A DNA stretch of 64,000 bases from a virus (Duplodnaviria; Caudoviricetes), in the IMG/VR virus record IMGVR_UViG_2636415832_000004, positions 3,796 through 67,795 of that record. One strand, given 5' to 3'. The stretch's first letter is position 1. Every line of letters starts with the position of its first letter. Below, piece after piece: positions 1 to 28,628 of this stretch. Both the position numbers and the translations under genes were made by a program. Under the pieces are notes generated by a model, which saw only the letters and a program-made list of their open reading frames with translations, was not told the origin of the DNA and did not search any database.

Positions 1-706
1 GTGATTGAGATTCTTGAGGCGTAGAGCCTGCACTCGGTTGCCCGTGATCGCTGCCCCACGATTCTTTAGTAATTGCTGCTTGAAGGTCTTTTGTATTTCG
101 CTCTAAAGCCATGAATTGAGCAGAAATTGCCCCAAGAGCTTTAGTCGTTTCTTGCTCTAGCTCACGATAGGCCTTGTCTGCGTCCGTTAAAAGCTCTTTT
201 TCCGCCGCTTGTTGTAAACCACTTAAGAAGCTACGGTAATTTCGCATATTCATAGCATGTTGGCTTTGAGCGTTATCGCTATCATTAGCAGACGGCTTCC
301 CTTCCATTGCAAGCTCTGTAAATTCGTGAAGGTTATCCATGAAAGCTTGAAGCATTTGAGTATCGCCCGAAGCTAAAATCTCACCTTTTAGATTTTCCAA
401 AGCTGCACTATTGCCCTTTGCTTGTGAAATACGGCTCTTTAAAATGTTCGCCTTGTACGTTAATACTGCAACCTCTTCCGCCGAAATAGTACGGTTTTTC
501 TTTGGTTTAGCTGCTGCAAGCTTTTCTTGAAGAGCCTTAATTTCTGCTTGTTGCTCCTCCTGCCAATACTTTAATTGAGCGTTTACGTGCTCCGAAGCCT
601 CTTGCATTTTCTTATAAGCTTCTCCTGGCTTGTACACCTCTTTATATTTGACGATAGCTCCTTTAACACTGTCTAAATAAGCATTGCCTTCTCGATATGA
701 ACGCAT
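1..706 (-). CDS. Satellite coiled-coil protein of unknown function, runs off window edge
   Basis: Read manually: AAGGAGAG RBS, ATG at 706 (MRSYREGNAYLDSVKG...), open to base 1. Confidence 0.75.
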   Translation of the reverse strand, partial: MRSYREGNAYLDSVKGAIVKYKEVYKPGEAYKKMQEASEHVNAQLKYWQEEQQAEIKALQEKLAAAKPKKNRTISAEEVAVLTYKANILKSRISQAKGNSAALENLKGEILASGDTQMLQAFMDNLHEFTELAMEGKPSANDSDNAQSQHAMNMRNYRSFLSGLQQAAEKELLTDADKAYRELEQETTKALGAISAQFMALERNTKDLQAAITKESWGSDHGQPSAGSTPQESQS

Positions 707-719
707 TTCGCTCTCTCCT

Positions 720-1034
720 TTATGAATGAATTTTTACTTTTTTTAATGGTAGGCCGAGTAAATGTGAAGCTGCTTCGGCTTTTGGTCCGATAATAATGAA
801 ACCGTCCTCCAAAAGCTCCCACTCGCCTTTAAGGAAACGGATCGCTACACCTTTGTGGTAAGCGGTCAATATTAAATCGTCGCCTTCGATACGTTGCCCG
901 TGCACAACTTTTGAAAAGAAGCCGTGCTTTCTAGCGTTTTGGTTGCCGTATTTTGGGTGAGTGTTTCCTTTATTTCCGATTGACTCTGTATTACCTGGTA
1001 AAAAACGACCTCGCCCGTCCCGTTGTGCCTTCAT
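720..1034 (-). CDS. Terminase small subunit-like protein
   Basis: RDGRGRFLPGN...GNKGN...GNQNARKHG motif typical of TerS proteins; GAGGTG upstream of ATG 1034. Confidence 0.55.
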   Translation of the reverse strand: MKAQRDGRGRFLPGNTESIGNKGNTHPKYGNQNARKHGFFSKVVHGQRIEGDDLILTAYHKGVAIRFLKGEWELLEDGFIIIGPKAEAASHLLGLPLKKVKIHS

Positions 1035-1206
1035 AATGCCCGAGCACCTCTTTCCGAGTTGGTTTTGTAGCGTTGCGTCGAATGTTAGGGTATGCAAGGG
1101 TGCTTGCGTTGCACAATAGCTTATACCTCAAGGGCTCTCACGCTTTAAAGCATGGGACAAAATGAAGTTTTCTACTATGCAACGCAACGCCCATTTAATG
1201 CAACGC

Positions 1207-1542
1207 TTAAGCGTCCCGACGTCCCCTAATTTGTACATCAAGCAAACCGATATTTAAGTGAACGAGATATTTAAGTTGATACAAACATTTTTCCAAATAA
1301 AGCTTCTCTGTTAATTCGGTTAACTGCTTTTTCGAATATGTGCTTGCAAATTCAGCTTTTAAAGGCTTCCCTAGCTTGTGTAAATCATCAAAAATTTGCT
1401 TCTGCCAAAGGTTTTTAGAGTAGTCCAATTGGTCAATTGCACGGCGTAAATCTTTTTCCTTTGGGTGCTTCGGAAGCATATTTAAAACATGGTTAATAAA
1501 ATTTTCAGCATCTTTATAATGCGTGTCCACAAACATAATCAA
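1207..1542 (-). CDS. Hypothetical protein
   Basis: 111-aa ORF coupled in operon. Confidence 0.6.
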   Translation of the reverse strand: MIMFVDTHYKDAENFINHVLNMLPKHPKEKDLRRAIDQLDYSKNLWQKQIFDDLHKLGKPLKAEFASTYSKKQLTELTEKLYLEKCLYQLKYLVHLNIGLLDVQIRGRRDA

Positions 1543-1772
1543 CGCCCCTTTTCTTTAAACCATTTTTTGATTGATTGAAGTCGACTCTTTTTAGGAGGCA
1601 CACCTTTTAATCGCTCAAGCTCCTGCTTTACAACTTCTCGAGGCTTTCCTACAAGGTCCTTAACGCCGTCATAGCAACTAACACATAACAGTAATTGCTT
1701 TGTTTCACCTATCATTTTACGGGTGTTATGATCCGTTAGATAAAGACCACACGCTTCACATTTTTTACTCAA
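1539..1772 (-). CDS. Small zinc-finger protein
   Basis: CEAC...CVSC. Confidence 0.6.
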   Translation of the reverse strand: MSKKCEACGLYLTDHNTRKMIGETKQLLLCVSCYDGVKDLVGKPREVVKQELERLKGVPPKKSRLQSIKKWFKEKGR

Positions 1773-2741
1773 TTAGCTCACCACTTTCAATTTAAGGTCC
1801 ATTGTGTGAACGCCGCCGTCCCAATCATGCGTACACTCCTCTACTAAAAAAGCTTCACGAACGCCGATTTTCTCAATAACAACGTAAATCATATTGCCGG
1901 CTTTAACGCCCCAATGCCCTAAACATTTAATTGAAAGGTCCTTCGTAGCTTGATTTTTTACCGCAAGCAGGGCTTCAAGTGACGCTTTAATTTGAGCGTC
2001 CGTCATGTTCTCGTCAACTTTTTTGAAGTATTGGAGCTGCCCCCACTTTGCGATATTGCTAGAATCTTGAGCTATATAGACCTTACGTTTCGAAGTTTCC
2101 TCGTCGTCTTTAACGAGCTTAATTCGGTTATAGGTGTCCTTATCAATGGACTCCGTAAACTCAAAGCCATACATGAGGCTCTCTTCGCCTAAATACCAAG
2201 CGGACGGATCAATCAAAAGTTGGTCAATCCGTTTCAAAATTAAGCTGCCAAATTCATCACGGAGAACGAAGAGTCTATTATTCGCAATTAAAGTTGCGTC
2301 TAAATATTGGCACACCACGTCAAAAGCGTTTTTATCGTCCTCCACTTTAGCCGGTACAACATAGCCGGTATCTTCAAAAGCTCCTATTTTAGCTCCTGCA
2401 AGTCCGGCTATATACTTTATCGCTGCCGTCGCCGTCATGGCTTTCAAAACAAAAGTGTCTTTATACATCAAGTAACGAAGTTCGTCGTAAGCCTTCACTT
2501 TCAACTCGGAGCTCTCGTTAATAACTGATTCAAACACGTAGCCGTAAAAAATACCCGTTGAGCCGTGCTTTACTCGAATAACTGCCCCTTTTTTAATTGG
2601 GTACTTCAACGGCTCCTCTATGATAAAGACGGCTTCAAGAACACTAGCTTTTGCTATCCTTGAAGTTTTAAAATTCACGCTGCTAACAGGCATTTCTAAA
2701 ACATTTCCGTCCCGGTTATCTAGTAAAATCTCTAAACTCAT
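1773..2741 (-). CDS. XkdQ/YqbQ-like baseplate hub protein (satellite copy)
   Basis: Similar along its length to prophage 20233-21195 (IFYG.VF, YD.LRY...KDT, TYN.IKL, YIAQD.S.I..WG.LQ). Confidence 0.85.
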   Translation of the reverse strand: MSLEILLDNRDGNVLEMPVSSVNFKTSRIAKASVLEAVFIIEEPLKYPIKKGAVIRVKHGSTGIFYGYVFESVINESSELKVKAYDELRYLMYKDTFVLKAMTATAAIKYIAGLAGAKIGAFEDTGYVVPAKVEDDKNAFDVVCQYLDATLIANNRLFVLRDEFGSLILKRIDQLLIDPSAWYLGEESLMYGFEFTESIDKDTYNRIKLVKDDEETSKRKVYIAQDSSNIAKWGQLQYFKKVDENMTDAQIKASLEALLAVKNQATKDLSIKCLGHWGVKAGNMIYVVIEKIGVREAFLVEECTHDWDGGVHTMDLKLKVVS

Positions 2742-5419
2742 TGTGAATACACTCCTTGAGCCGAACGTGCTACCTCTTCACTGATTGAATTTTCAATTTT
2801 AGCGATAACATCATGTACGTCCACATCATTATTAATCGTAGTGCCTTCAAGTCTAACCGTAGGATTCAAGGTAACCTGCACTTGACGAATAGCTTCTCTC
2901 GTAGCCATTTCTTTAAATAGCTCAAGGTCCTCGTCTGCAATGTTAATCTCGTCCTCGATTTTTCCGATTTTATCAAGCTTACCGCCCGTTGGATTGCTCG
3001 AGCCTTTCCCTCCTGCACCTTTAGAGGCACCGTCCAAGCCGTCCGCATTAAATGCCGGTACATTTCCTAGAAGGCTCTCCATATCAAGCCCCGGTGAAGC
3101 TCCTGGCTGCTCTTGTCCGTTCTTTTTCGGAATAAGCCCTTGCACTTTATCAACCAAGCCATTAAGTGAGTCGCTCACGGCCATAGTGCCCGAGTAAGCC
3201 CAATCCATAGCACTATTGACGTTATCCATGTAATTGCCTAGCTCCATTCGAGGTAGGCTTACAACGCCTCTATCGCTTGTTGGGGCTTCGAGGCTAGACG
3301 CCATATTCGCAATTTTATTGCCGACGCTTGAGCCACTCATGGAAAGCTTTCCGACCTTTCCTAAATCGATTCCAGGAATTTGATTAAGGGCGTCCACAAT
3401 CCAATTGATTGCTCCAATTGCCATATTGGCACCGGAAACAAAGGCATTTCCGATTGCATTAGCTACCGAGTCAATTTGCATACCCATAGCAGCCATATTG
3501 TTCATAACCATTTGAGCCATATCGTAGAAAAGCTTTTTAATGGCGTAAACCGGATCAATGAAAAGATTGATTAAAAACTCGGCAAACGAAAGGAAGAAAT
3601 TCGCTACGTTCGCTACATTGTTATAAATGTAAGTGAATAGAGCCGCAAAGAGCCCCACAATAAAGCTAATAACCGTTGCCGTTTGCTCTCCCCAAATAAT
3701 GAGAGCCGTGATAACCGCCACAATCGCAATAATGAAAGCCGCTAAAATCCAAGTACCTGGGAAAGCCCAAATAGCTGCATTAAGTCCCCATTGAGCCGCC
3801 GTTTGTGCAAAAGTAGCTCCCGTTGCAAACATCATGTAAGCCCCGGTAATCGCTAAAGCTGCTGCACGAATACCCTCAATAGCAACCGTTGCCATGGCGA
3901 TACCTCGATAAACTGCTAGTACGGTCATGTATGCCGTTAATGCAGCTGCTGCCGTTAAGAAAATCGGTCCAAGTATGCCCCATGTATCGGCAATAAATTG
4001 AGCTCCGCTTGAAACCATGCCGTAGCCCCACTCAACTACATCAAATAACATGGTTAAGCCTGCAATACCTACGTTTACGCCTGCCATAATGTTATTGGAC
4101 ATAACGGTGAAGGCGTCCGAGTTCACAAAGTCATTGAATCGACCGAATAGAGGCTCTAAAGCTCGAAGCCCTTTATCCTTCATAATTTGCATTTGCTGCC
4201 CAAACGTCATAGGCATTTCAGCGAATTTACGGTTTGTTTCTTCTGCTGCTGCAAACATGGAATTTTTAATAATGTCCGCCGTAATTTGCCCCTCGGAAGC
4301 GAGCTTCTTAATGGAGCCAACGGGTACACCCATATAGTCCGCAATGTTCTGTACAATCGGTTGGGCGTTGTCTAAAATGGCGTTCAACTCTTCACCTTGG
4401 AGCTTACCTGCTGCCATTGCTTGCGTTAATTGAAGCATGGCCGACTCAACGCCGATAACGCTTGTCCCTGCAATGGAGAAGGTTTTATTCAACTGTTCCG
4501 TAAAGGCTATAATCTCGTCATTGGAGCTAAACGCTGCCCCGGCTTGAGCCGCTAATTTTCCGACGGCGTCTGCCGTAGCCGTATAAGAGCCTCCCGTTGC
4601 CTGGGCGGAAGCGAAAATTCTTTCTTGAAGCTCTGCCGTCGTTTGCATACCGTCATTAATGAGGTTAAGACGAGCCTCAATATTGGTTGCGTTGTCAGCT
4701 GCTGCAATAAAACTTTTCATACCATTCGTTAAAGCTTGAATGGAAAGATAGGCTCCGGCTGCTGCTGCAAACATCTTGAAGAAGCTTGAAACTTTCCCTC
4801 CGGCTTGTTGGCTTGCGTTCCCTACCTGCTCAATTTCTTCGCCCAAGTCGTCAACGTCGCCCTCTGCATTGTTAGCGGATCGCTCTAAACGGTCGACCTC
4901 TCCCGTTAAATCTCGGATAAGCTGCTCCGTTCGTTCGATTGAAGCCGTATCAAACTCCATATCGAATTGAGCTCTTGCGTCCAATGCAGAAAGGCGATAC
5001 TCGGCTTGTTGCATTAGGTCTTGCATACGCTCGAGGTCTTGCGTGTTAACGTCCACGTCAATCATGGTAGAGAGCTCTCGAAGTCTGCTTAAATTCTGAT
5101 TGATAACATTTTGAGCCGATTGTAAAGCTCTCGTATTCAATGTTGCGTCGACTTCGAGCTGCATATCCGTATTAGTCCGGAGTCGACTCAAATCATTCAT
5201 GAGCTCTTGGACATTTGCACCGGCACTATTGACGGCCGTGTCGTTTACTCGAATATGGCTTTGAGTGCTAGTCATAGTTCGCATAGTACTTTCTACATTA
5301 CTGCTTGCATTGTGAAGTTGCTCCATTACTCGAATGGTGTTATTCATGGAATTGATAACATTCATCAAAGGACCGGTAACGCCGTCGTGCATGGAGAGCC
5401 TTGTATCTACTTCTGACAT
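2738..5419 (-). CDS. Tape measure protein (satellite copy)
   Basis: AMLQLTQAMAAGKLQGEELNAILDNAQ tape-measure domain, hydrophobic middle, C-terminus EDLELFKEMATREAI similar to prophage TMP EDLKYLRDIAEREAI. Confidence 0.9.
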   Translation of the reverse strand: MSEVDTRLSMHDGVTGPLMNVINSMNNTIRVMEQLHNASSNVESTMRTMTSTQSHIRVNDTAVNSAGANVQELMNDLSRLRTNTDMQLEVDATLNTRALQSAQNVINQNLSRLRELSTMIDVDVNTQDLERMQDLMQQAEYRLSALDARAQFDMEFDTASIERTEQLIRDLTGEVDRLERSANNAEGDVDDLGEEIEQVGNASQQAGGKVSSFFKMFAAAAGAYLSIQALTNGMKSFIAAADNATNIEARLNLINDGMQTTAELQERIFASAQATGGSYTATADAVGKLAAQAGAAFSSNDEIIAFTEQLNKTFSIAGTSVIGVESAMLQLTQAMAAGKLQGEELNAILDNAQPIVQNIADYMGVPVGSIKKLASEGQITADIIKNSMFAAAEETNRKFAEMPMTFGQQMQIMKDKGLRALEPLFGRFNDFVNSDAFTVMSNNIMAGVNVGIAGLTMLFDVVEWGYGMVSSGAQFIADTWGILGPIFLTAAAALTAYMTVLAVYRGIAMATVAIEGIRAAALAITGAYMMFATGATFAQTAAQWGLNAAIWAFPGTWILAAFIIAIVAVITALIIWGEQTATVISFIVGLFAALFTYIYNNVANVANFFLSFAEFLINLFIDPVYAIKKLFYDMAQMVMNNMAAMGMQIDSVANAIGNAFVSGANMAIGAINWIVDALNQIPGIDLGKVGKLSMSGSSVGNKIANMASSLEAPTSDRGVVSLPRMELGNYMDNVNSAMDWAYSGTMAVSDSLNGLVDKVQGLIPKKNGQEQPGASPGLDMESLLGNVPAFNADGLDGASKGAGGKGSSNPTGGKLDKIGKIEDEINIADEDLELFKEMATREAIRQVQVTLNPTVRLEGTTINNDVDVHDVIAKIENSISEEVARSAQGVYSQ

Positions 5420-5493
5420 ATTCTCACCTTCCTTAAATTAAAATTCGAAGCTATTTAATGGCTGCAATCGCTGCGTTCATGAGTAGCTTTAAT

Positions 5494-5802
5494 TTAAGCC
5501 GATTTCTTTCGCATTTTCGTTATGAACTTTTCAGCTTTAGCACGGTTGAAAAGTAAAGGGAAAAGTAGGTCATTTTGCTGAAGCATAACGAATACCGGCT
5601 CTTTACAGTGAGCGCAATCCTTAACGCCGTTGATCGCCTTACTGCCTACTCGTAAACTATTTAAAGTTCGGCAGCAAGGACATGTAAAGTTAAGGTGGAA
5701 CTCTCCTTGTTCTATTGAAAGATGGCTTATTGTTTTATGTTTGAATGTTTTTTTCATAGTTTTCGCTCCTTTTATAGGGCGAGGCGTCACCGGCGTTTGC
5801 AA
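5494..5802 (-). CDS. Zinc-ribbon protein
   Basis: CPCC...CAHC; true start probably MKKTF. Confidence 0.6.
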   Translation of the reverse strand: MQTPVTPRPIKGAKTMKKTFKHKTISHLSIEQGEFHLNFTCPCCRTLNSLRVGSKAINGVKDCAHCKEPVFVMLQQNDLLFPLLFNRAKAEKFITKMRKKSA

Positions 5803-6105: not shown

Positions 6106-8697
6106 TTAATGCGTAGGGCGTGAGAATATTTTCACTTGTCCATATGCTTTCGTTCGTTTTTTGGCTTGAGAGCTCTCCTGAATCCATCCCGTTTGGCGAA
6201 TTAATTTTGTGATTTCACGGGCTTCATAAGGACTGATTCGAGATTTCGAGTCTAATCCAAGTGCTTCAAACATAATTTCTTGAGAGCTTATACGAGTCGG
6301 AATAACTAATTCTTTAAAATCTTCAAATTCGGAATAAGGCACATAATCATGATTATTTTTGTACCATTCATAACGCTCCTCACTCGAAAGATCATTATAG
6401 TTACCCTCTGCACTGCCATTTATGTGATTTATCCACGCAATACGCTTTTCTTTAGTCCAAAATGCGTTAGAATCAAAATCTATTGGTCTTGGTTTATTGA
6501 GATAGAAGAGTACATCTGTGAGGCGTGAATCCGTCATAGTATGCTGGCGTTGCTGCTCTTCTGCTAACTCTTTCAATTCCTTACTCATAAAGTGAGGCTT
6601 CAATAGATTAGACTTTAACCAATTTTCATAGACTTCCGCCCAAACTTGTTGAACATCATCTATTGTTAAATCACCAGGGTGCTTTATCCGTTTACTTTCA
6701 TCACAGACTATGGGTATGAAACGTCGATTTCCCGTCCCATCTGACAAAAACTCACTTTCATTAGTAGTTCCGATAAATCCACAACTACGAGGTACGTCTT
6801 TTGCTTTACGTGAATAAGCCCCTCTGTAACTATCAACTTGCGAGGTAATGAAGCGTTTTACTTCTTCAATTTCTGATTTTCGTAAAGCTGCAAGTTCCCC
6901 TAGCTCAATTATCCATTTGGACTCAAGAATCTCGGCTGCTTTTTTAGTATCAAATGATGTCAGACTATCTGTATGCCATTTGTCTTTTATTGCAAGCTTA
7001 GAAGCAATTAAAGACTTTCCTGCACCTTGTTTCCCTACGAGAATCAAAGCCTCGTCGAATTTACAACCTGGCTCCCATAACCTCTTCAATAAACCAGTTA
7101 AAAAATGTTTTGTTGCTAATCGCACGTATTGGCAGTCTTCTGCACCCATATAATGAATGAACAAGCTCTCCGCCCTCTGTATGCCGTCCCAAGGTTTACT
7201 TAAAATAATGTCTTTTATAGGATGAAATGTTTGTTCTTGAATTAACTTATCTATTACAAGAAGCCCCTTCGAGAACGGCAGACTAATATCAAAAAGCTTT
7301 TCAATCTCTAATAGTAAAAAATTCGAATCCTCATCAGTCCACTGAACAAATTGGTTGGATTGTAACTGTTGATTTTGTCGCCAGGGGACATTTGCCACCC
7401 TTATAGCTCGATTACTAAATTCATCAAATCTAAAAGCGTGACTGTACAAAGTTTTAATAATTCGTTCTATGTTCGAAGTTGTAGGTTCGACTTGCCCTTT
7501 TTTGTTACAACTTAAATCATTGAGCAGCTTATCCATACTAGACAAAGCGTCATCATCATTTGGTAAATCTTCAAAATCGTCAAAAGCCGACGTATTTAGA
7601 TTGGATTTCTTAAGTTCTAACCTTACCTTTTGACATCGTTCTTCTTTACAAGAATTCAACCATTCAATGAACGCCACTTGAGAAGGTTTTCGATTGACCG
7701 GCGTCCCTTCCTTCGAGTCCTCGTCTAGCTCATGGAATAAGTGCAAGCGTACAAGGTCGAAACTATTCACAAGTTGACCGCTTACCGGGTCCGTCCCATG
7801 ATGTGAATAAGCGAAAAGCCCGTCCTCGTAAAGAATAAGTCCGCCCGTTGTTGAGCCGTGAACGTATGTATAACGTCCTGCCCCTGCCGTCTCGTACTTA
7901 TCCGATAAGAAAGTTTCGATTGCTTCTTCAATTGTGTAAGTACGGCAAAATGCTCCAACCATTCCCGGCTTCTCTAAAGGGTTTCCTTGCTTGTCTGCCA
8001 TTTTCTTACGGCTTTCTTGCTGCCTGCTTGACTCCGGCCATTCGTGCGGATCACGCCAATCATTATATAAAGAAAGAATGTCGTCCGGATTTAACCATTC
8101 TGCGTCCTGGTACTCGAAGAAGTATTCACCGTCGGCACTTGTTGAAGGCCAATACATTAAACGGTGCGGTTGATAAGTTGTATCGTCAAAGAAGTCAATT
8201 CCGAACTGCTCCGCAACTTTTTTACTTACTGCAACGTACTCCTCCGGCGAAACCGGTCGAGCTAAAGGAATGATTAATCGTAAACGAGGAGTCGAGCTTG
8301 AATGCTTATGCGTCGAATAAACTAAACAAGAGTTGTCGAATACAAGTGAAACGCCGTCCCAAAAGTCGCCTTTAATGAAGTCTGCGTCAAGCGTAAGAGC
8401 TTGCCTCCAAGCCACCGAGTCCGCCTTTCGTTTTCCGCCTTTCAAGCTCCCAAAAACGAATCCGCCAACGTCTTTGATCTCGTCTTGAGTTGCCTTCGTT
8501 AAAGCTTTATATTCCGCAACCGTTTCCGGCGTACGAGTTGTTTGACTAACTTTTTTGGCGAAGTCCGACCAAAGCATTTCAGTGTTTTTCCAAGTTGTCG
8601 CCTTCCTGCTTTGGGCAGTAGCTACGTGAAGCGTACCGTCGTATTTAAAGTTCTTGAATGAACTATTTTCCTTTGGTATACTATTGTTATTAATCAA
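6106..8697 (-). CDS. Primase-helicase, VirE/VapE family
   Basis: N-terminal primase-like region (LTLDAD, YSTHKH, RLRLIIPL); Walker A GKQGAGKS, IELGEL, GTTN, TGNRRF. Confidence 0.9.
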   Translation of the reverse strand: MINNNSIPKENSSFKNFKYDGTLHVATAQSRKATTWKNTEMLWSDFAKKVSQTTRTPETVAEYKALTKATQDEIKDVGGFVFGSLKGGKRKADSVAWRQALTLDADFIKGDFWDGVSLVFDNSCLVYSTHKHSSSTPRLRLIIPLARPVSPEEYVAVSKKVAEQFGIDFFDDTTYQPHRLMYWPSTSADGEYFFEYQDAEWLNPDDILSLYNDWRDPHEWPESSRQQESRKKMADKQGNPLEKPGMVGAFCRTYTIEEAIETFLSDKYETAGAGRYTYVHGSTTGGLILYEDGLFAYSHHGTDPVSGQLVNSFDLVRLHLFHELDEDSKEGTPVNRKPSQVAFIEWLNSCKEERCQKVRLELKKSNLNTSAFDDFEDLPNDDDALSSMDKLLNDLSCNKKGQVEPTTSNIERIIKTLYSHAFRFDEFSNRAIRVANVPWRQNQQLQSNQFVQWTDEDSNFLLLEIEKLFDISLPFSKGLLVIDKLIQEQTFHPIKDIILSKPWDGIQRAESLFIHYMGAEDCQYVRLATKHFLTGLLKRLWEPGCKFDEALILVGKQGAGKSLIASKLAIKDKWHTDSLTSFDTKKAAEILESKWIIELGELAALRKSEIEEVKRFITSQVDSYRGAYSRKAKDVPRSCGFIGTTNESEFLSDGTGNRRFIPIVCDESKRIKHPGDLTIDDVQQVWAEVYENWLKSNLLKPHFMSKELKELAEEQQRQHTMTDSRLTDVLFYLNKPRPIDFDSNAFWTKEKRIAWINHINGSAEGNYNDLSSEERYEWYKNNHDYVPYSEFEDFKELVIPTRISSQEIMFEALGLDSKSRISPYEAREITKLIRQTGWIQESSQAKKRTKAYGQVKIFSRPTH

Positions 8698-8788: not shown

Positions 8789-9094
8789 CTACCATTCTCT
8801 AGTAATCTCGTCTATTACATTTAAAGCGTCGGAAGCCTTGTAGAATCGCTTACGGCTTTTTTTACGTTCAATTGCTTTCATGTAAGGATGATTTAGTATG
8901 TTCTCCTCCAAAAAACGCTTCGACATTCCCGTTAATAAACTCAAACGCTCGACGTCGCAAAACCAAATTTGAGCTGCTAAAGTATCCTCAATTTTTTGCT
9001 CAAACTTTTCTTGAATGGCTTTTTCATCAATTTGAATTTCAATTTTTGACGCGATCACTCCTAAACACCTCCGTTCTGTTCGCCACGAGTCCAT
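8789..9094 (-). CDS. Putative DNA-binding protein, similar to prophage 56989-57294
   Basis: Shared LS.LTG...FL...L..P.MK..ER pattern and terminal EW; start uncertain. Confidence 0.6.
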   Translation of the reverse strand: MDSWRTERRCLGVIASKIEIQIDEKAIQEKFEQKIEDTLAAQIWFCDVERLSLLTGMSKRFLEENILNHPYMKAIERKKSRKRFYKASDALNVIDEITREW

Positions 9095-9264
9095 GCCTCA
9101 ATAACATCACGGTTAAATAAGATTTTTCCACGTACTTTAAAGTGCGGCACCTCGCCATCACGAACCATTTTATAAATCGTTGCCGTTGATACTCCTAGCA
9201 AACTTGAAACCTCTGCAACAGTTAAAGTAATGACTTTTTGGGTTGTTACGGTTACGCTTGTCAA
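9061..9264 (-). CDS. Excisionase-type HTH protein
   Basis: LTVAEVSSLLGVSTATIYKMVRDGEVP. Confidence 0.85.
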   Translation of the reverse strand: MTSVTVTTQKVITLTVAEVSSLLGVSTATIYKMVRDGEVPHFKVRGKILFNRDVIEAWTRGEQNGGV

Positions 9265-9448: not shown

Positions 9449-9931
9449 ATGAACGATGCGAAAAATTTTGGCGTTTTCCTAAAGAATGCTAGGGAAGAGA
9501 TTGGTCTCACCTTGTCTCAATTAGGAGATTTAATAGGCTATTCAAATCCTTACTTATCTCAAATCGAAACGGGTAAACGAAAAAACCCACCTTCCCCGGA
9601 GCTACTGAAAAAGTTATCCGAGGCAATGGGAAACGTTACTTATGCAGGTTTGCTTGACGCAGCAGGCTATCACGAATTAGCTAAAAATGAGAGTATGAAA
9701 CAACTTTATGAAGATTTCGGAGGAGATAATGAATTAAGCGTAATTGAATTACGGAAAAAGGTAGAGGATTTACAAAAAACTTCGGATTTAAAAAAATTAC
9801 TCAGTGAAGAAACTTTATGGAATGAAAAAATAGCACCAAGGTATAACGGTCACAAATTAACCGAGCAAGACCGTAAAAGGATTCTCAAAATGTTAGAGAT
9901 ACTTTTCCCGGAGTATCAAGATAAAAAGTAA
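9449..9931 (+). CDS. XRE-family master repressor of satellite
   Basis: LTLSQLGDLIGYSNPYLSQIETG HTH; upstream of integrase. Confidence 0.85.
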   Translation: MNDAKNFGVFLKNAREEIGLTLSQLGDLIGYSNPYLSQIETGKRKNPPSPELLKKLSEAMGNVTYAGLLDAAGYHELAKNESMKQLYEDFGGDNELSVIELRKKVEDLQKTSDLKKLLSEETLWNEKIAPRYNGHKLTEQDRKRILKMLEILFPEYQDKK

Positions 9932-9991: not shown

Positions 9992-11212
9992 ATGGAACTG
10001 CATAAAACTAAAGAGCAGCACATTTATTATTATTTTAATGCTGCTAAAGAAAAGTGCTTTATGTACCGTTATCGCTATACGGATGAAATAACGGGCAAGC
10101 AAAAAGAAAAGAAAAAAATTGGCTTTAAAACAGAAAAAGCAGCACTGAAAGCCCTTTTAGAATTAAAGGCTACAATGCTGCGTGGTGAAACAAAACTTAT
10201 TGAAAATGATAACTTAACTATATCACAATGGCTAGATACTTGGTACGAAACAAATGCTCATAAATGGAAAGCAACTACACGGAAACAACGGGAAATGGCT
10301 ATTCGATTAAATATGAAGCCATTACTAGGTCATTATAAGCTCCAAAAGCTAGATCGGTTAACTTATCAGAAAGTATATATTCGAGAATTAGAAAAAACAT
10401 ACAAGTCGAGCACAGTAAAATTACTTCATAACTTATTTAAAATAGCGATTAATGCAGCAGTTGAAGAAGAGATTTTACAACGGAATCGTTTTACGAAAGT
10501 ATCTTTCACAACGAATGAAGAGCATGAGGTTGAAGAAATTGAAAACTACCTTACGCCTGCCGAGCTTAAGCTTATGCTTGAAACTGCGAAACAGACCGAG
10601 CACATCACGAATTATAGCTTCCTTCTTACAATTGCTTATACAGGTATGCGTAGAGGAGAGGCTTGTGGACTCCAATGGAAAAACATTGACTTCAAAAATA
10701 ATACGATTACTGTTGAGCGAACTCGTGACAATAAGGGAGCAAGACCACCAAAGACTAAAAACAGTTACCGCACTATTTTAGTTGACGAGCTTGTTATGGC
10801 TCAACTAAAAAAATATCAAACATGGTGTAAACAGATCATGCTCGCTTTTGGTATACGTTATTCTGAAAATTCTTTCGTGTTTATTTCTTACCAAACTGCG
10901 GAGCCGATTACTGACAGTGGTTTGCTATACATGCTACGACGTGTACTTGAAGCAGCAGGGCTAGTTAATATTGTTGAAGAGAACGGCAAGGAAAAAGTTA
11001 TTCCGAAATGTACGCTCCACGGTTTACGTCACACACACGCTACTATCCTTTTAAATAATGGTCAAAATGTTAAGGTTATTGCCGAGCGATTGGGTAACAC
11101 GCCTGCTATGATTTATGAAATTTATGGTCATGTTTTAAAGGAATTAGAGCAGGAATCAGTAGCGGTATTTAGTAACAGTTTAGATGCCAATAGGGCAACT
11201 TCTAGGGCATAA
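9992..11212 (+). CDS. int: Tyrosine integrase
   Basis: TGMRRGE, K, HGLRHTH, LGN, Y catalytic motifs; N-terminal arm-binding region. Confidence 0.95.
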   Translation: MELHKTKEQHIYYYFNAAKEKCFMYRYRYTDEITGKQKEKKKIGFKTEKAALKALLELKATMLRGETKLIENDNLTISQWLDTWYETNAHKWKATTRKQREMAIRLNMKPLLGHYKLQKLDRLTYQKVYIRELEKTYKSSTVKLLHNLFKIAINAAVEEEILQRNRFTKVSFTTNEEHEVEEIENYLTPAELKLMLETAKQTEHITNYSFLLTIAYTGMRRGEACGLQWKNIDFKNNTITVERTRDNKGARPPKTKNSYRTILVDELVMAQLKKYQTWCKQIMLAFGIRYSENSFVFISYQTAEPITDSGLLYMLRRVLEAAGLVNIVEENGKEKVIPKCTLHGLRHTHATILLNNGQNVKVIAERLGNTPAMIYEIYGHVLKELEQESVAVFSNSLDANRATSRA

Positions 11213-11527
11213 AGCTATAAGGGCACTACTCAAACACTTGATACAACTACATTTCAAAGGCTTGTAGAGTACTACTCTCGTTAATTTTTTTGGTCTGTTA
11301 ATCAACGATTTTATAAAACCTCGAAACAAGGAAAACCCTTTAGTTTCGGGGTTTTTTCATGTTTTAAGTAAATCTCTAGCTATAACAATTAATGATTATT
11401 TCTAATTTAAATTGGGGGCTTGGTGGGGGCACTTAAAATGATATAATTTATTTCGGGCAGATGTATGTCCCTTTTACAATACAACTAAAAGGCCACTCAT
11501 TGTCGATATGATGAGTGACCTTTATAC

Positions 11528-11871: not shown

Positions 11872-11998
11872 GATATTATTTATTCTCCTTTTTACCTTTT
11901 TCGATAATTTTTACTAAACTGAACAATTTATTATCATACTATTTGTATAGTTTTTGGGATATAATTTCATAGAAACTAAATATTACCGGAGGTTTACT

Positions 11999-13063
11999 AT
12001 GAATACTTTGAAGTCATTAATTTTTCCTCAAGACCTGAATAGATTAAGTAAAAGTATTTTAAAGGACATATGTAATGATCTGACGTTAGAATCAACAGGA
12101 AATGTCAATGAATTAACAAATAGAGTATGGTCATCATTTGGACAAATCGAAGGAAGTACACTTGAAAAAATTTACAAAAATATCTTTGCAGGGGCAATTT
12201 CTTTAGCATGGTATCGTACTACAAACGAGGAGGGTTTAGTTGGGCTTAAACAAAATATTATCCAAAACATGCCGTTTAATCCATTTGAAGAGGTAATTAC
12301 TCCAAACAGTACAGAAATTCCTAATGAACCATCTATAATTGCTGCTACCGAAATTGATGGACCTTCTAAATATCTTCTTCGATTCATTCATAGAACAGGT
12401 GTAAGCGTTGACTATTATTTAGCTGACAGAAGAGAATACATTAAACACGAAATTACTACAGTTTATATTGATGAAGTTAAGGGAATAATCGAAGTAAGAG
12501 CAAGTTCTACATCAGCAAAAAAAGTTATTTCTGGATTAGCTGCAATTTTGAACGAAACATATGACTTTAAACAGTTTGATTTTTTAGAAAGCTACAATGG
12601 TGACTTAGAATTATTAGCTGACGCATTACAAGGCCAATTAATTGATGCTATAGGGAGACCAGAAGGTTTGGTAGAAAGTTTTGAAGAAACTCAAGGCCAA
12701 TCAATTGTGAGCATACTATCTGCCATTGACGAATATTATAATAATGGCGAATTAACCCTACTAGAAGAAAATTTAAATAGTGAAGATATTACCGGTATTT
12801 AAACTACTCCATTCACTTTACTACTTTTAAGTGGTCTTGAAACGATAGGTTTAGGAAGTATTCGAGAACTTAGAGGACTACCTTTATACGATTATTTAGA
12901 GCCTTATCTTGCAAAGCAAAAAGGTTCTATATTGTTTGAGCATGCTGAAAGTGGCGTTGTGCAAGTTTATTCGATTCGAATTGGTGTAAAATCAAAAACA
13001 TTTAAATTCAACGTATTTGCGTCTGAACACGTATTAGATTATATTAGAGAAAAAATCTTTTAA
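11999..13063 (+). pseudogene. Accessory gene with SAP-like N-terminus, interrupted by in-frame TAA at 12800-12802
   Basis: Same frame stays open for 86 more codons after the stop, up to 13063. Confidence 0.65.
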
Positions 13064-15275: not shown

Positions 15276-15755
15276 CTATAGTGTATCTAAACTTTTTATA
15301 ACTTTAAGTAGTATATCTTCATTTTTTTCAAAAAATGATTTTGATACTTCTGCATTTATATTATAAATAACATCATTGTCGATAAAGACTAATTCATAAT
15401 GTACCTTTTCATCTAAATTTCCTAGTATAAGATCTGCACTCTTACCATTATCCAAAGTTATTCTTTGAATATCGAATCCATAATTTTTAGCACTTTCATA
15501 AGGGTCAGATATCTCCTCCATATAGTGTGCTGCGTAGGTGAGAATACGTACATCTGGATTTCCAACATACAAATTAATACCATCTTCATTATCTGACTCT
15601 TCTCCAATATGCCAGTCAGGCGGATAGTTCACTGAAAAACCATATTTTGAATTAAGGTATGTTTCCCACTCAGCACTTTTAATTTTGATTTCATCGTCGT
15701 TACATGCAACAAGAAAGGTAATGATAAAAATAAAAGACAAAAATTTCTTAAGCAT
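15276..15755 (-). CDS. Lipoprotein moron (PsbP-like)
   Basis: LVAC lipobox; YGFSVNYPPDW. Confidence 0.7.
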   Translation of the reverse strand: MLKKFLSFIFIITFLVACNDDEIKIKSAEWETYLNSKYGFSVNYPPDWHIGEESDNEDGINLYVGNPDVRILTYAAHYMEEISDPYESAKNYGFDIQRITLDNGKSADLILGNLDEKVHYELVFIDNDVIYNINAEVSKSFFEKNEDILLKVIKSLDTL

Positions 15756-15961
15756 TTTTACTCTCCATTTTTTATTGTTTTCATTTATTTATTCTACAGA
15801 AAACAGCGTAAACCTTCTAAATATGACAATAAAAATAACGCTAAGCTTCTGCTTGCGTTTTAAAGTAGATGCTTAATAGTAAGCCGTTAAAAACTCCAAT
15901 GAAAAACCTATTTTCCACCTTCCCCACTCCTTACTTACAGGATTGGTAGAAAGATTATTTA

Positions 15962-16120
15962 TTATACACCTTCAGTAGCTGTTAAGATGTAATCCTCGAC
16001 TGCTTGACGATAAACTTCATTTGTGATGTCGTCTAAGACATATGTTTGTCCAGTTTTGGGATTAAGCCCACCTGCTAAAATACGCTCCGCTGCAATACGT
16101 ACTACTACTTGATTGACCAT
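15962..16120 (-). CDS. Small tail-module protein (52 aa)
   Basis: Read manually: MVNQVVVRIAAERILAGGLNPKTG..., coupled to upstream stop. Confidence 0.65.
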   Translation of the reverse strand: MVNQVVVRIAAERILAGGLNPKTGQTYVLDDITNEVYRQAVEDYILTATEGV

Positions 16121-16497
16121 TATAAAATCCCTCCATTTAGTTTATCCACTACTAACAACAATGCATTTTCTAATTCCTCTACTCGCTTTTCTAACGGTAG
16201 TTTCAATGCAGATTCACTCTCATTCCGAAAAGCAAATTGTACATTTTTGTTGATTGGATTTACTTGATAGTACACACAGTTAGTAAATTCTTCATGATAC
16301 TGACCATATTCGAGGTCAATGAAATCAATATCATTTTTGCTGTGTTCATTTAATACAAAAATATTTTCATAGTCTGAATCAAAGGACTGTTCAATTTCAA
16401 CAGTTCCTTCCCCTTCGCCAGAATCGTAAATAACTTGACCGTTTTGCTTCAAGAAATATATACGTCTGCCATTTTTATACCAATTGATAACTTCCAC
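16120..16497 (-). CDS. Tail fibre-associated protein
   Basis: Position after fibre; LEKRVEELENALL. Confidence 0.6.
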   Translation of the reverse strand: MEVINWYKNGRRIYFLKQNGQVIYDSGEGEGTVEIEQSFDSDYENIFVLNEHSKNDIDFIDLEYGQYHEEFTNCVYYQVNPINKNVQFAFRNESESALKLPLEKRVEELENALLLVVDKLNGGIL

Positions 16498-17838
16498 TTA
16501 CATCACCCCCCATGCTTGTACCAAAATGCTTAGTGTTTGTGCTGATATATCAGTGTTACTATAAAAAGTTAATCTTATACGAAGATAATTGCCATCAATA
16601 ACTGTGCCAAAATTCGGGTTGCTATGAAAATAGGGACTTACATCACACAAAACAAAACCATTACTGGTCGACCCACCTGCTCTGGTGTAACTTGATGAAT
16701 TTGGCATAAACCCCAAAGTTACACCAGAGTTTGCTGTACTATTATTAAAAAAAATAATTGGACAAAAAATAACAGCATTCTTTATCGGGAACCCAGCATC
16801 GAATAAAAATTCTACTTCGTGACGAAGAGCTGAGCCAACGCTACGTGTAAAATTTTGTTCACGGTATTTGAATGTTTGGATGGCGCTAATATTTGCCGCC
16901 ATCGTCGCAAACTCTGCATTGGTGGCTGTTGGCACACCTTTACCAGTAATGGCGTTTGCGACTTGGGCTTTACCATTACTTACAGATGTAAAAAGCAGAT
17001 CATATACTTCATCGGCTCTTGATTTTTGGATTGGTATATTTGCAATTATTTGTCCAGTTTTTTGAAGTACCACATTATTGACAATATTGTATGCACCTCC
17101 TTGCGTCGAATTAATTTTTAGACGTACGTTAAGAGGGTTTTTCCCAGTTGCTCGCTTTGTTATAGGGATATAAAACCTATTTGGTGATGTTTCCCTTACC
17201 GCATCCCCGACGTGGAATTGATAAGCAAAAGCACTAGATATACTAACGATTGTTTTTTCATTTACATACTGTGTGCCATCAGCCGCTCCTAAATGGTAAA
17301 TTACATGTGCTCCTCCACCAGCATTACTTTGAGAATAAACCGATGTTAAAACTAACTCAATTGACCCCCAAAAATGTTCAGTAGGTATTTGTATCACCAA
17401 TGTCTCTACACTCGCAACATCTTGCCATTCGTACCAAAAAGGCCACACTTTTTCTACTGTTGTTGATGATAAATTTGTAATATCCGCATCATTATAAACA
17501 CCTTTTTGCCACGCACCATCAATCTTAGCAACATCCCCAGCACGCATATGCTTACTGGCGTCGTTGATATGCGTTATTACACTCTGCCGTACCTCATTGA
17601 TAGCAGCCACTAAATTAGTTTTTTGTGTGGTTTCGAGATTATTCAAGTTGCCGACTTTTGTTTCGAGATTATTCAAACGTACGAGAATGTTATCTCCTGC
17701 TTCGCCACTGCCAATCGCATCACTGATGCGCTTTAGTTCAGCGTCGATAATATCCACGTTACTATTAAAATCTTCTACATTATAAAAATCTGTTTGATCA
17801 GGTTTAATCATATTGTAATTTGGTGTTCTTGTTACCAA
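16498..17838 (-). CDS. Tail fibre / receptor-binding protein
   Basis: TPNYNMIKP...DFNSN.D.ID anchor, NLVAAINEV, FTSVSNGK..VA.AITGKGV. Confidence 0.8.
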   Translation of the reverse strand: MVTRTPNYNMIKPDQTDFYNVEDFNSNVDIIDAELKRISDAIGSGEAGDNILVRLNNLETKVGNLNNLETTQKTNLVAAINEVRQSVITHINDASKHMRAGDVAKIDGAWQKGVYNDADITNLSSTTVEKVWPFWYEWQDVASVETLVIQIPTEHFWGSIELVLTSVYSQSNAGGGAHVIYHLGAADGTQYVNEKTIVSISSAFAYQFHVGDAVRETSPNRFYIPITKRATGKNPLNVRLKINSTQGGAYNIVNNVVLQKTGQIIANIPIQKSRADEVYDLLFTSVSNGKAQVANAITGKGVPTATNAEFATMAANISAIQTFKYREQNFTRSVGSALRHEVEFLFDAGFPIKNAVIFCPIIFFNNSTANSGVTLGFMPNSSSYTRAGGSTSNGFVLCDVSPYFHSNPNFGTVIDGNYLRIRLTFYSNTDISAQTLSILVQAWGVM

Positions 17839-18384
17839 TTACATCACCCCGTTTCTTATTTCATCATGTGTGAATGGTCGTAAATCTATATGTCGATAAT
17901 CATGTAATACACTGTGTTGGATATAACGTAGCCTCACGGTCAGTTCCATATTTTGCGGCACAATACGCTCGAGTAAATCCCTGGCTGCATTGAATTGATT
18001 TCGTACAGTTAATTCTAATTTTATATCTAATGTTTTATCGGCTTTATTAATCGTCAGCTCGTAGGAATCATCACCTAGCAGACTGTTTAACAAACGAATT
18101 AAAACCTCTTCTGTGAAAGGCGGTTGCTCCTGGTAACGCGTTAAGATCCGGAAGCGGCGTGTTTCAATTGTGTCGTTATCGGCAGGATGTAGATGTAACA
18201 TTTGTTCATATCTAGTGGCTCCATCCTTTGATGTTGTGATAACAAATTGATCATCCAGCGTCCTTTCAATTAAATCCCACAAAGCTGATAGTACAGGATT
18301 TTCGGCTTTTGCTATGGCAAGCATTTCTTTAATGTCATACAATACTGGTGGCCAATATTGAACAATATCTACCTCTTTAGCCAC
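17839..18384 (-). CDS. Baseplate protein (XkdU/DUF2313-like)
   Basis: Position after J-like gene; ETRRFRIL, ERIVPQN. Confidence 0.75.
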   Translation of the reverse strand: MAKEVDIVQYWPPVLYDIKEMLAIAKAENPVLSALWDLIERTLDDQFVITTSKDGATRYEQMLHLHPADNDTIETRRFRILTRYQEQPPFTEEVLIRLLNSLLGDDSYELTINKADKTLDIKLELTVRNQFNAARDLLERIVPQNMELTVRLRYIQHSVLHDYRHIDLRPFTHDEIRNGVM

Positions 18385-19450
18385 TCATATCACCTAATTT
18401 CGGGATATTTTCTCTTGCTACTATCAAATTGGATTGTGCGCCATTTAACCGAGTATCTTTAATATCAAGCACACCTGCCACGCCTAGCAGCCTTGTCTCA
18501 ATTTGTGAGATACGTACAACCAGCCCCGCATTATCATCATCACTATGTGCCCATTCTGCTGCCAATTCGCGAAAATAATCTGTTACAACTGTTCGAGCTG
18601 TATTCTCAATAGCAGCCCAATCCCAACCCGTTTGATAAGTGATGTCCGTAGCTACATGGACCACTGACTCATTTACACCAAAAACGGTAACTTCATGGTC
18701 AATGGGGGCTGTACCAATTCCCTCACCTGTCTGATCTAACGGGTCTACCGCTTCTTGCACATCATCTACTAACGTTTGGGTAGGTTTCTCATACAAAGAA
18801 TTGATAATGACAAGTTTTACTGTACCACCACCATTCCATGCCCTGTATACTCGGACACCACCGACACCAGGCAGAGAACCAACCTTTTCCTTATAGTCAG
18901 CACGGTTTCCTCCAAATGCCTGCGAATCAAATGAATCAAAGTAGCGCTTACGAAAAGCTTCTGTACTTTCTTCATCATCCCCTGGAATTAAAACATCTGT
19001 TAAAAAAGCCGTTTGCAAGCCATTGATATAATCAATCGGTATCAACTGGCCAGAAAATAAATTGCCAACATTACCTGCCGTTTCACATTGCAATATAAAT
19101 TGACCAAACGAAATACGTTCAATGACTTCATAATTTAACTCATCTAAACTGAAGCGGCTGCCGATTGGTATATCCATATTAAATAACCCTTTACGTTTTG
19201 CAAAAGTTGCTGGCCGTGGCTTTAATCCTCGTTCTGCAGCACGGCGAATTAGGTATTCTCTTGGAGCTGTATCCGCGAACACAAGATCTATAAAATGCTT
19301 CAAAGTCATGAGCATCTGTACAGTTTCTACACTATTGGCAGCCGTCGCATTAAAAATCATGGAAGTCCCCTCGCGTTTATCTAAAGAATTATCCACGCCA
19401 GCAAGCTTTTGAGCCATTAAATCTTCATAGGTTGTATCTAAATTAAGCAT
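18377..19450 (-). CDS. Baseplate J-like protein (XkdT)
   Basis: DKREG, GGNRADY, WNGGGTVK, GTAPIDH. Confidence 0.9.
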   Translation of the reverse strand: MLNLDTTYEDLMAQKLAGVDNSLDKREGTSMIFNATAANSVETVQMLMTLKHFIDLVFADTAPREYLIRRAAERGLKPRPATFAKRKGLFNMDIPIGSRFSLDELNYEVIERISFGQFILQCETAGNVGNLFSGQLIPIDYINGLQTAFLTDVLIPGDDEESTEAFRKRYFDSFDSQAFGGNRADYKEKVGSLPGVGGVRVYRAWNGGGTVKLVIINSLYEKPTQTLVDDVQEAVDPLDQTGEGIGTAPIDHEVTVFGVNESVVHVATDITYQTGWDWAAIENTARTVVTDYFRELAAEWAHSDDDNAGLVVRISQIETRLLGVAGVLDIKDTRLNGAQSNLIVARENIPKLGDMSG

Positions 19451-19854
19451 CAGTAGTCCACCTCCTTCGATGCTGTAATATCACCGTATATCGTGTGCGC
19501 TGTGTACTCAACATGTACTTTACTTTTGCGTGTAGTGACCACAAATGAATCCACTTCATTGATGCGATCATCTTGTAACAAGGCATCCCGTATGCGCCGC
19601 TTCACCTCGCTTGCTACATACGAAACAGGCTTGCCGAACAAGTCCTTAAACTCAGCGCCAAAATTCCATGAATAAATAATATGGTCATACCGCTCAACGG
19701 AAAGCATTAAAAAAATCGCTTGTTTCATGGCTTCTAGTTCGTCAATATAGCCAACACAGCGATCTTTTGCATAGATTAATTTGTAATTCTTCGTTGGCTC
19801 AATAACTTCCTCAAAATCCAGCATCAGCTCATCGTTTTCGATTTGCGGAATCAT
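19450..19854 (-). CDS. XkdS/DUF2634 baseplate protein
   Basis: EAMKQAI, ERY..IYSWNFG.E, ALLQDDRI. Confidence 0.85.
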   Translation of the reverse strand: MIPQIENDELMLDFEEVIEPTKNYKLIYAKDRCVGYIDELEAMKQAIFLMLSVERYDHIIYSWNFGAEFKDLFGKPVSYVASEVKRRIRDALLQDDRINEVDSFVVTTRKSKVHVEYTAHTIYGDITASKEVDY

Positions 19855-20255
19855 TCAACCACCTCTTTGTCGATAATAATATACTGTTGCCCTCCATGTG
19901 TGCGAATCATTGTAACCTTATCCCCAACAATTAGAGCGTTATGGATTAGAAATTTCTTTCTCCCTTTGTAATCATGATTATGGGAAGCAAAAGCATCGTC
20001 CCCAGATCCGCCAGCACGATTTTCTGTTACATGCTCGACTGTCATTTCCACTTCATAATCCATCACAGCACGGGTTAACTTCAATTGTTCCTCCTTTAAA
20101 GTCAACTTTTGGTCAAGTTGAATCTCTAATGGGCTAATGCTTATGACAGTGCCATAGACGACTGTAGAAAGCTTTTGAGCATTAATGACCCCTAACACTA
20201 TTCGCTGGAACTCTGTTAATATATCCTCCATGCTACGCAATGAAATCACCACCAA
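19851..20255 (-). CDS. XkdR/DUF2577 spike-like protein
   Basis: GTV....PL.I..DQKL, SHNH, GGQQY. Confidence 0.8.
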   Translation of the reverse strand: MVVISLRSMEDILTEFQRIVLGVINAQKLSTVVYGTVISISPLEIQLDQKLTLKEEQLKLTRAVMDYEVEMTVEHVTENRAGGSGDDAFASHNHDYKGRKKFLIHNALIVGDKVTMIRTHGGQQYIIIDKEVVE

Positions 20256-24071: not shown

Positions 24072-24134
24072 TTCTTCACCTCTTTTTTCCCTAATAAAAA
24101 GCACCCAAATATGGATGCTTAATATAATGAATAT

Positions 24135-24740: not shown

Positions 24741-24753
24741 GGAAATCCTCCTT

Positions 24754-27351: not shown

Positions 27352-27370
27352 TTACACTACCTCCTTAATA

Positions 27371-28614: not shown

Positions 28615-28628
28615 CCTCCTTAATCAGG

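Follow-up and report, generated by a model that had tools for sequence, protein, structure and literature searches.

The stretch of DNA analysed here, referred to as the window, comprises 64,000 nucleotides (nt) of the Caudoviricetes record IMGVR_UViG_2636415832_000004 of IMG/VR (positions 3,796 to 67,795) and corresponds to G000:C8:898825-962824; the 20 kb to its left (locus L001) was also read, and positions there are given as negative window coordinates. The left part of the window belongs to an integrated island which carries two phage tail genes side by side: one for a tape measure protein (TMP) of 893 amino acids (aa; 2738..5419, minus strand) and one for a predicted baseplate central hub of the YqbQ/XkdQ type (322 aa; 1773..2741, minus strand). 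Both frames are intact (893 and 322 codons), and the stop codon of the TMP gene overlaps the start codon of the hub gene (ATGA). To the right of the island lies a complete prophage of a contractile-tailed phage (myovirus), which has its own counterparts of both genes.

The identity of the two proteins was supported by independent family collections. In Pfam the 893-aa protein matched TMP_3 (PF20155, E 2.3e-46), and in PHROGs it matched the tape measure family phrog_1068 at 5e-186 over profile positions 12-705 of 706; the 322-aa protein matched YQBQ (PF24032, E 4.8e-103) and the tail protein family phrog_400 (2e-86). A preliminary description, made from the letters of the window, had recognized an 893-aa TMP and a 322-aa XkdQ, and both the open reading frames (ORFs) and the two collections bear this out. 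The hub was modelled with AlphaFold2 from a 19-row alignment (mean predicted local distance difference test score, pLDDT, 87.9), in which three loci from a search of viral contigs (53-56% identity) served as alignment rows only. In Foldseek the model resembled the central hubs of contractile systems, namely those of diffocin (8v3w_H, TMq 0.81), phiCD508 (9g8s_q), Mu (gp44, 1wru) and T4 (gp27, 1k28_D), with E-values from 4.8e-22 to 8e-14, and on this basis the 322-aa protein is predicted to have the baseplate central hub fold. A sequence search of the PDB gave no match for the hub and a single TMP chain (9occ_M) for the TMP.

The best matches among isolated phages were Geobacillus phiOH2 (TMP 41%, hub 59% identical) and Psychrobacillus PVJ1 (TMP 43%, hub 55%), and within the genus the best relatives (TMP 33-45%, hub 52-57%) belong to prophages of six species (G018, G028, G068, G007, G017, G002) and to a prophage remnant in G016. 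The tail modules of phiOH2 and PVJ1 consist of the same families (TMP_3, YQBQ) and are the closest relatives of the island pair (41-43% and 55-59%), but they are complete tail operons with a LysM gene between TMP and hub, whereas the island pair stands alone in a satellite backbone. A LysM gene also stands between the two genes in those genus prophages and in the G016 remnant; there is none in the island. The xkdO-xkdP-xkdQ and yqbO-yqbP-yqbQ genes of the PBSX- and skin-type elements of B. subtilis are the corresponding tail modules with the same families. In a protein collection the nearest non-self TMPs, of 986 and 870 aa, were full length and 64-65% identical; the shorter of them (65%), encoded on a contig of 14,952 nt, has the same N-terminal extension as the island TMP. 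A protein-cluster look-up of the island TMP returned only alternative-start versions from G000 and two singletons, therefore the TMP relatives of about 96% identity which are described below from other sequencing runs are not in that collection.

The island is 15.7 kb long and lies between exact direct repeats of 22 bp at the 3' end of rpsD. The left copy (attL, at window -4393, in L001) comprises the last codons and the stop of rpsD, and the right copy (attR, 11264..11285) is an exact repeat situated 52 nt beyond the integrase gene; within the window no further copy was present at <=3 mismatches (0 expected). To the right of attR, at about 11330-11357, a terminator-like site marks the displaced terminator hairpin of rpsD. 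Promoter-like sites were not in excess (23 vs 23.0 in shuffled sequences) and terminator-like sites were fewer than in shuffles (5 vs 11.4). In the sister species G020 the same rpsD site contains the core with 1 mismatch, then a remnant of ~3.8 kb (locus L127, G020:C1:4348000-4367999, positions 15511-19530) with a truncated integrase 67-81% identical to that of the island, and then the same right flank; therefore the site has been used repeatedly, and islands there can decay.

The right end of the island has the order of genes of a satellite of the phage-inducible chromosomal island (PICI) type. Next to attR stands the gene of a tyrosine integrase (406 aa; 9992..11212, plus strand; PF00589, PF14659, PF14657), which shares 52-57% identity with its counterparts in the islands of G006, G015 and G022, discussed below, that likewise carry a TMP gene. 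It is preceded by a cI/Stl-like helix-turn-helix (HTH) repressor (160 aa; 9449..9931, plus strand; HTH_3), divergent from the rightward operon and sharing 42-54% identity with the repressors encoded in primase islands of G063, G264, G028 and G138. On the minus strand an HTH_17 excisionase/AlpA-like protein (67 aa; 9061..9264; PF12728, and phrog_66, excisionase), the protein p101 (8789..9094; phrog_14980, with homologues in the islands of G015, G006 and G022) and a VirE/VapE primase-helicase (863 aa; 6106..8697; PF05272 at 1.1e-69, phrog_256 at 2.6e-271) follow, so that the repressor faces HTH_17, and p101 and the primase come after it: this is the divergent switch and replicase order of the PICI type. 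A second VirE-type primase gene, 41-43% identical to that of the island, is present in G000 (L112, G000:C10:181700-201699), with no other match of the protein panel around it.

The remaining genes are small and mostly lack a family. Directly upstream of the TMP gene, p102 (5494..5802, minus strand) encodes a zinc-ribbon protein with a CxxC...CxxC motif; it has no PHROG match, the ESM Atlas yielded zinc-ribbon-like leads only, and nothing marks it as a tail chaperone. Beyond the hub gene, all on the minus strand, lie p77 (1539..1772), a further zinc-ribbon protein by its sequence, which in contigs of other runs belongs to the block exchanged along with the hub; p111 (1207..1542), for which no family was found in Pfam or PHROGs; p125 (720..1097), which has a weak match to the small-terminase-like phrog_1889 (5.8e-06) over residues 26-65 only, that is 40 residues, and has no similarity to the small terminase of the prophage, its ESM Atlas look-up being uninformative; and the coiled-coil protein p238 (1..706; its end lies 10 nt beyond the left edge of the window), which shares 29% identity with a protein of 230 aa in the G015 island. 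The part of the island beyond the window (L001) contains p148, p138, a Rha-like protein of 250 aa, p67, p69, a MazF-like/HTH pair, p138b, p96 and finally attL. The pair, an HTH gene and a 173-aa MazF/MazE-like gene, is on the opposite strand (L001 16843-17598, window about -3157 to -2402), and the HTH protein at this far end shares 80% identity with an HTH protein that stands at the end of the G006 island. The Rha-like protein is 48% identical to the Rha of a prophage in the N-terminal domain only, and was not taken as evidence of cross-talk.

Among the tested ORFs of the 15.7-kb island no capsid, portal, terminase, sheath, tube, tail chaperone, LysM, fibre or lysis gene was detected in Pfam and PHROGs. 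The preliminary description had reported the absence of sheath, tube, LysM and fibre genes from the part in view, and this was true of the entire element, also of the 4.4 kb that lie beyond the left edge of the window; it had also pointed out that a full structural gene set in the left flank would speak for an ordinary or decayed prophage. The left flank, those 4.4 kb included, consists only of small regulatory and accessory genes as far as the att site at rpsD and has no structural genes, so the island is not an ordinary prophage. Its length, its integrase and its defined att sites are those expected of a PICI-type satellite (~10-18 kb).

The prophage to the right of the island extends from about 13993 to 58000 and occupies at least 44 kb of the window. 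It has genes for small and large terminase (TerS, TerL), portal, MuF, scaffold, capsid, sheath, tube, an XkdN chaperone, TMP, LysM and YqbQ, and further for XkdR/S/T/U-like baseplate proteins, fibre, holin and amidase. All its tail genes considered here are on the minus strand. Two have counterparts in the island, namely the TMP of 748 aa, counted from a GTG start (21858-24104), and the YqbQ hub of 320 aa (20233-21195); LysM/XkdP (21188-21865), the tail chaperone (30095-30529), the tube (30955-31431) and the sheath (32022-33383) have none. Island and prophage TMP are identical in 178 of 552 aligned columns (32%) and the hubs in 108 of 315 (34%), therefore both gene pairs are homologous but are not recent copies of one another, as the preliminary description had it; the length it gave for the neighbour's XkdQ (320 aa) was right, and that of the neighbour's TMP has to be changed from ~737 to 748 aa. 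In the whole genome there are just two YQBQ genes and a single sheath gene, which leaves the neighbour as the only resident phage with a contractile tail. The island has about one third or less of the length of this prophage, a ratio which is usual for PICIs relative to their helpers.

Some features of the neighbourhood were recorded in their own right. Between the island and the prophage (11954-12802) lies a gene for a 282-aa protein of unknown function (phrog_38742, weak), the DNA of which is 73-76% identical in 24 other species of the genus, and which is situated near a related prophage in G036 and G022. Between tail chaperone and TMP the prophage has a 6-kb insert of low GC content (31-35%; 24104-30095) with a divergent repressor-like/cro-like pair, an ORF6N/ORF6C anti-repressor and several small genes; in the seven related prophages that show both genes (L052-L057, L060) only ~1.0-1.3 kb separate the two, and in G068:C49 a 4.2-kb insert at this place includes a Rha-like gene 47% identical to that of the island. 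The MuF head protein of the prophage (38260-39795) has a C-terminal Ntox50 toxin domain, and the DDE transposase of an insertion sequence (44002-45354) stands directly upstream of the small terminase gene.

Parts of the window between 1500 and 9500 were found in 16 sequencing runs from 12 studies, one of which is possibly the source of G000 itself. Assembled contigs of four runs were aligned to the island and its flanks (L118; window = L118 - 5000) and were read through match tables only. The contig of run X4 (14,665 nt) covers window positions -966..4, 710..1551 and 2909..5487, with 110 differences and 4 gaps in 2,579 nt of the TMP gene; instead of 1552-2908 it has 410 other letters, so that the replacement takes in the whole hub, TMP codons 838-893 (56 residues) and almost the full length of p77. 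Run X2 (1,338 nt) has the same pattern, with 367 other letters instead of 1569-2887. Over TMP codons 1-837 (X4) and 1-844 (X2) both are about 96% identical to the island. Run X3 (3,101 nt) matches without a break between 1553 and 3103, a stretch that takes in p77, the hub and the end of the TMP gene (66 differences in 1,551 nt), and run X5 (11,888 nt) covers window 2927-5487 only. A joint in X3 (629->16822 in L118 coordinates) was considered as an empty site and was not used, as it has 26 letters on one side. From these contigs it appears that the body of the TMP is the best-kept part and that the TMP C-terminus, the hub and p77 come and go as one block, a pattern which needs checking.

In order to see the island among its relatives, 49 species genomes of the genus were covered, of which 23 gave 30 TMP_3 matches; one weak match, a 154-aa frame in G070, was left out, and the contexts of the other 29 were scored with a tblastn panel drawn from island and prophage (44 proteins), after which selected ORFs were scanned for families. 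In 16 of the 29 loci the TMP gene belonged to a prophage that has sheath and tube genes upstream, in four to other phage types, and one locus had no panel match. Three were remnants or an unclassifiable short contig: a block in G016, a TMP fragment beside an amidase in G006 and a 2.7-kb contig of G066. The G016 block (L036/L037, G016:C1:1012500-1050000) retains TMP, LysM, hub, baseplate and holin, lacks head and sheath genes upstream, adjoins chromosomal genes (S-layer protein, Y-family polymerase, YolD) and serves as an example of a truncated prophage in this genus. The last five loci (G000, G006, G015, G022, G012) are islands with an integrase nearby and without a head, sheath or tube gene.

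The islands of G006, G015 and G022 share p101 and a p138-like or p238-like gene with that of G000, and the TMP of the G006 island (728 aa) is intact. The G012 island (L049, G012:C1:136100-156099) is different: about 16 kb between spo0A and a duplicated spo0A 3' end, with a XerC-like integrase, a DpnII-type restriction enzyme, a 907-aa TMP and a TerS-like HTH protein, besides which no other recognizable structural gene was found in it. All four have a TMP without a hub, and tblastn with the XkdN chaperone of the prophage gave no match in any of the five other islands covered. The TMP gene of the G022 island can be compared with a prophage TMP gene on another contig of the same genome: their DNA is 89% identical over the first 1,243 nt (95% over 314 aa) and 85% over the last 107 nt, and the stretch between is only 52% identical, a sign that the island gene is matched to a resident phage; the island gene is in two frames through a 1-nt length difference inside the similar stretch, which is either a real frameshift or an assembly error. 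At the level of the family, 301 genomes were searched with the primase, 24 had matches, and 20 loci were examined: at four of these VirE-primase loci there was an island head of integrase, cI and primase, in three of them also with xis. One of the four, in another genus (G264), is an island of 16.9 kb between 60-bp repeats at tRNA-Val, with integrase, cI, xis and primase, a 922-aa TMP, an overlapping LysM/XkdP-like gene and, two genes further on, a TerS of Terminase_2. A search of a genome contig collection with the TMP and with the primase gave no relatives. TMP genes, alone or with one inner-baseplate neighbour, recur in satellite-type backbones with differing att sites, replication genes and TMP lineages.

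Anatomy and comparison support well that the island is a satellite, and we hold, with some reserve, that it is probably a PICI-like satellite which builds chimeric tails; the mechanism itself is plausible by analogy. The occurrence of tail genes in the islands suggests that some satellites of Bacillales insert their own core parts into the tail of a helper. According to the available portions of a recent study of Vibrio cholerae (Mathur, Boyd et al., Nature 2026, PMC12987554), a contractile tail starts at the hub, where the TMP C-terminus is seated, and tube and sheath grow along the TMP. Following this scheme, the satellite would integrate at the rpsD 3' end with its own repressor switch, excisionase-like protein and primase-helicase, and upon induction would express its own TMP and central hub as the inner core from which the tail grows, while a helper myovirus would supply capsid, packaging motor, sheath, tube, outer baseplate, fibres and lysis. 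The island TMP and hub would then replace those of the helper, and the island DNA would travel in particles the tails of which are chimeric; if the neighbouring prophage is the helper, these tails would be longer (893 vs 748 aa), and through the substitution the helper may form fewer working tails. The hub and the C-terminus of the TMP could behave as one matched cassette. The chimeric or longer tails, the poisoning of the helper, the role of the neighbour as helper and any transfer are inferred.

The nearest parallel are the PICI-like elements (PLEs) of V. cholerae, satellites of the lytic phage ICP1. In the available portions of PMC12987554, virions of PLE11 contain the TMP and the hub of the PLE while those of ICP1 are excluded, the PLE proteins are 20-41% identical to their ICP1 counterparts, the hub is not present in all PLEs, and a difference of 95 aa in the TMP goes with a difference of 10 nm in the tails. 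An element that brings only TMP and hub and takes the rest from a helper fits this chimeric-tail scheme. As far as those portions go, the likeness includes an integrated satellite without sheath, tube and fibres, which has its own TMP and hub diverged from those of the helper (20-41% in the PLEs, 32-34% in the island), and members with a TMP without a hub, comparable to the islands of G006, G015, G022 and G012 and to the X2 and X4 contigs. In contrast, the backbone and the host of the island are unrelated (Gram-positive, tyrosine integrase at rpsD, VirE primase), it has no recognizable tail chaperone gene or Rta-like inhibitor, its candidate helper is a temperate PBSX/phiOH2-like myovirus and not the lytic ICP1, and it is known from its genes alone. 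The analogy to the PLE family is at the level of function only; the backbone is PICI-like, and the host is a spore-forming member of Bacillales (the relative G012 carries spo0A and spoIVB). As part of the chimeric-tail reading, and with the same guarded preference, we see in the island a probable Gram-positive parallel to the Vibrio PLEs, where the mechanism itself is already established.

Other satellites resemble the island in part. Firmicute PICIs of the Staphylococcus aureus pathogenicity island (SaPI) type have a similar size, an integrase at one end, a divergent switch of a repressor and a cro-like/xis gene, a primase-replicase and, at the far end, accessory genes, and they too lack genes for capsid and lysis; unlike the island, they remodel capsids and packaging and use the tails of the helper unchanged, whereas the island has two tail genes and no recognizable set of terS, ppi and cpm. 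The EPIP satellites of Mycolicibacterium have a TMP gene and form particles with tails longer than those of the helper, as reported in the available part of a preprint (bioRxiv Dec 2025, PMC12822802), but by the same source they differ from the island in a serine integrase, in their own capsid, scaffold and head-tail adaptor genes, in siphovirus tails and in a host of another phylum. The legend of Extended Data Fig. 10 in PMC12987554 mentions tmp genes in PLE-like elements and in some capsid-forming PICIs (cf-PICIs), further satellites outside Vibrionaceae with predicted tmp genes; the cf-PICIs make their own capsids, and the island has no capsid gene. In literature searches on satellites or PICIs with tape measure, tail or baseplate, which took in only the legend of that figure, we found no description of a PICI-like island of Bacillales with TMP or hub genes.

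Several results weigh against the proposed satellite with chimeric tails. In the Pfam and PHROGs scans neither a clear small terminase, capsid-size gene or other packaging-redirection gene nor, unlike in the PLEs, a tail assembly chaperone was found in the island. TMP and hub of the one resident myovirus share just 32-34% identity with those of the island, so that it is a candidate helper only. The whole-island DNA search in 48 other species of the genus revealed no near-identical or co-linear island, mostly integrase matches and short matches of 65-73% to primase, TMP and hub being found. The TMP of the G015 island is in two ORFs (737 + 187 aa, with a TAATG overlap), and that of the G022 island, siphovirus-like and of a different lineage, is in two frames, therefore the TMP gene of an island can decay; islands at the rpsD site decay as well, as seen in the G020 remnant. 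The cassette evidence consists of assembled contigs of three runs, read through match tables. For the tail-hijacking satellite of the preliminary description the PICI-like backbone, the predicted hub fold and the recurring TMPs speak in favour, and the lack of a tail chaperone and of a clear small terminase and the split TMPs of two relatives speak against it.

These same facts could be explained if recombination had joined two phiOH2/PVJ1-like tail genes to a PICI-like or prophage backbone, where they would be inert passengers of a mosaic or decaying remnant, still free of stop codons. Truncated tail modules do occur in the genus (the G016 block with TMP, LysM, hub, baseplate and holin but no head or sheath upstream, the TMP fragment beside an amidase in G006, split TMP and hub genes in G005), as do the integrase stub of G020 and the split island TMPs of G015 and G022, and the G000 island is itself a mosaic which has modules in common with two island types. 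However, true remnants retain the phage order TMP-LysM-hub-XkdR-XkdS-J, while the island has TMP and hub only, with the LysM gene cleanly removed, the ATGA overlap in its place and both long frames intact; moreover, TMPs of different lineages are found in islands with different backbones and att sites in five genomes of the genus and one of another genus, the 65%-identical relative is likewise full length, and the TMP is the best conserved part across other runs. We consider this explanation unlikely, with some weight left to it.

It is improbable, too, that the two genes serve solely as an anti-phage device, in which decoy core parts would trap the tube, sheath and baseplate parts of an infecting or induced myovirus in dead-end tails and so shield the population, without any role in the transfer of the island itself. 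Interference with tail assembly is a known theme of defence, also on PICIs and prophages (PMC11364771, PMC10884400, in their available parts), Rta of PLE11 targets the TMP of the helper (available portions of PMC12987554), and no packaging gene was identified in the island; nevertheless the island has kept the integrase, the excisionase-like protein and the replication module typical of mobilized satellites, and in G264 TMP and LysM stand next to a bona fide TerS, which ties tail genes to a packaging lifestyle. PADLOC models gave no match for 14 of the 15 island accessory proteins tested, the sole match being a weak one (PDC-M69A, E 6.6e-4, on the HTH71 protein), and in the PLEs, by the portions of PMC12987554 cited above, interference and the use of an own TMP go together. 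That the element moves independently of a helper by another route, for example as a mobilizable integrative element, and carries the tail genes as cargo with an unrelated cellular role, we regard as very improbable: no helper was identified and no terminase gene was found in the island, but relaxase, coupling protein and secretion genes did not appear in the Pfam and PHROGs scans of its ORFs either, TMP and hub are tail structural proteins by family and predicted fold, and the backbone is phage-like.

Beyond the chimeric-tail reading of the single island, a wider one, which we hold to be less likely than not, can be put forward: PICI-like satellites of Bacillales might be a family with exchangeable inner-tail cassettes. 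The TMP, alone or with a matching hub or LysM adaptor, might be selected according to the kind of tail that the local helper makes; the exchanged unit might break inside the TMP C-terminus and thereby mark the TMP-hub interface; and a private core might let the tails of the satellite escape whatever acts on the TMP of the helper, while it sabotages the helper's tails. The agents acting on the helper TMP could be a tail-assembly inhibitor of a satellite, or superinfection exclusion which blocks TMP-mediated DNA entry in neighbouring lysogens.

Until 2025-26 satellites were thought to take the tails of their helpers unchanged, and the PLEs altered that view; in the available portions of PMC12987554 the authors propose that tail manipulation is widespread. 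If the chimeric-tail reading of the island is true, this idea extends to Gram-positive PICI-type satellites of temperate myoviruses and siphoviruses in a spore-forming lineage of Bacillales that lends itself to ordinary laboratory tests. The variants of the islands (TMP alone, TMP with hub, TMP with LysM, and TMP ends that copy a resident phage) would then be a natural experiment on the matching of tail interfaces, and may help to explain why satellites carry a tail core of their own, a question which those portions of PMC12987554 leave open.

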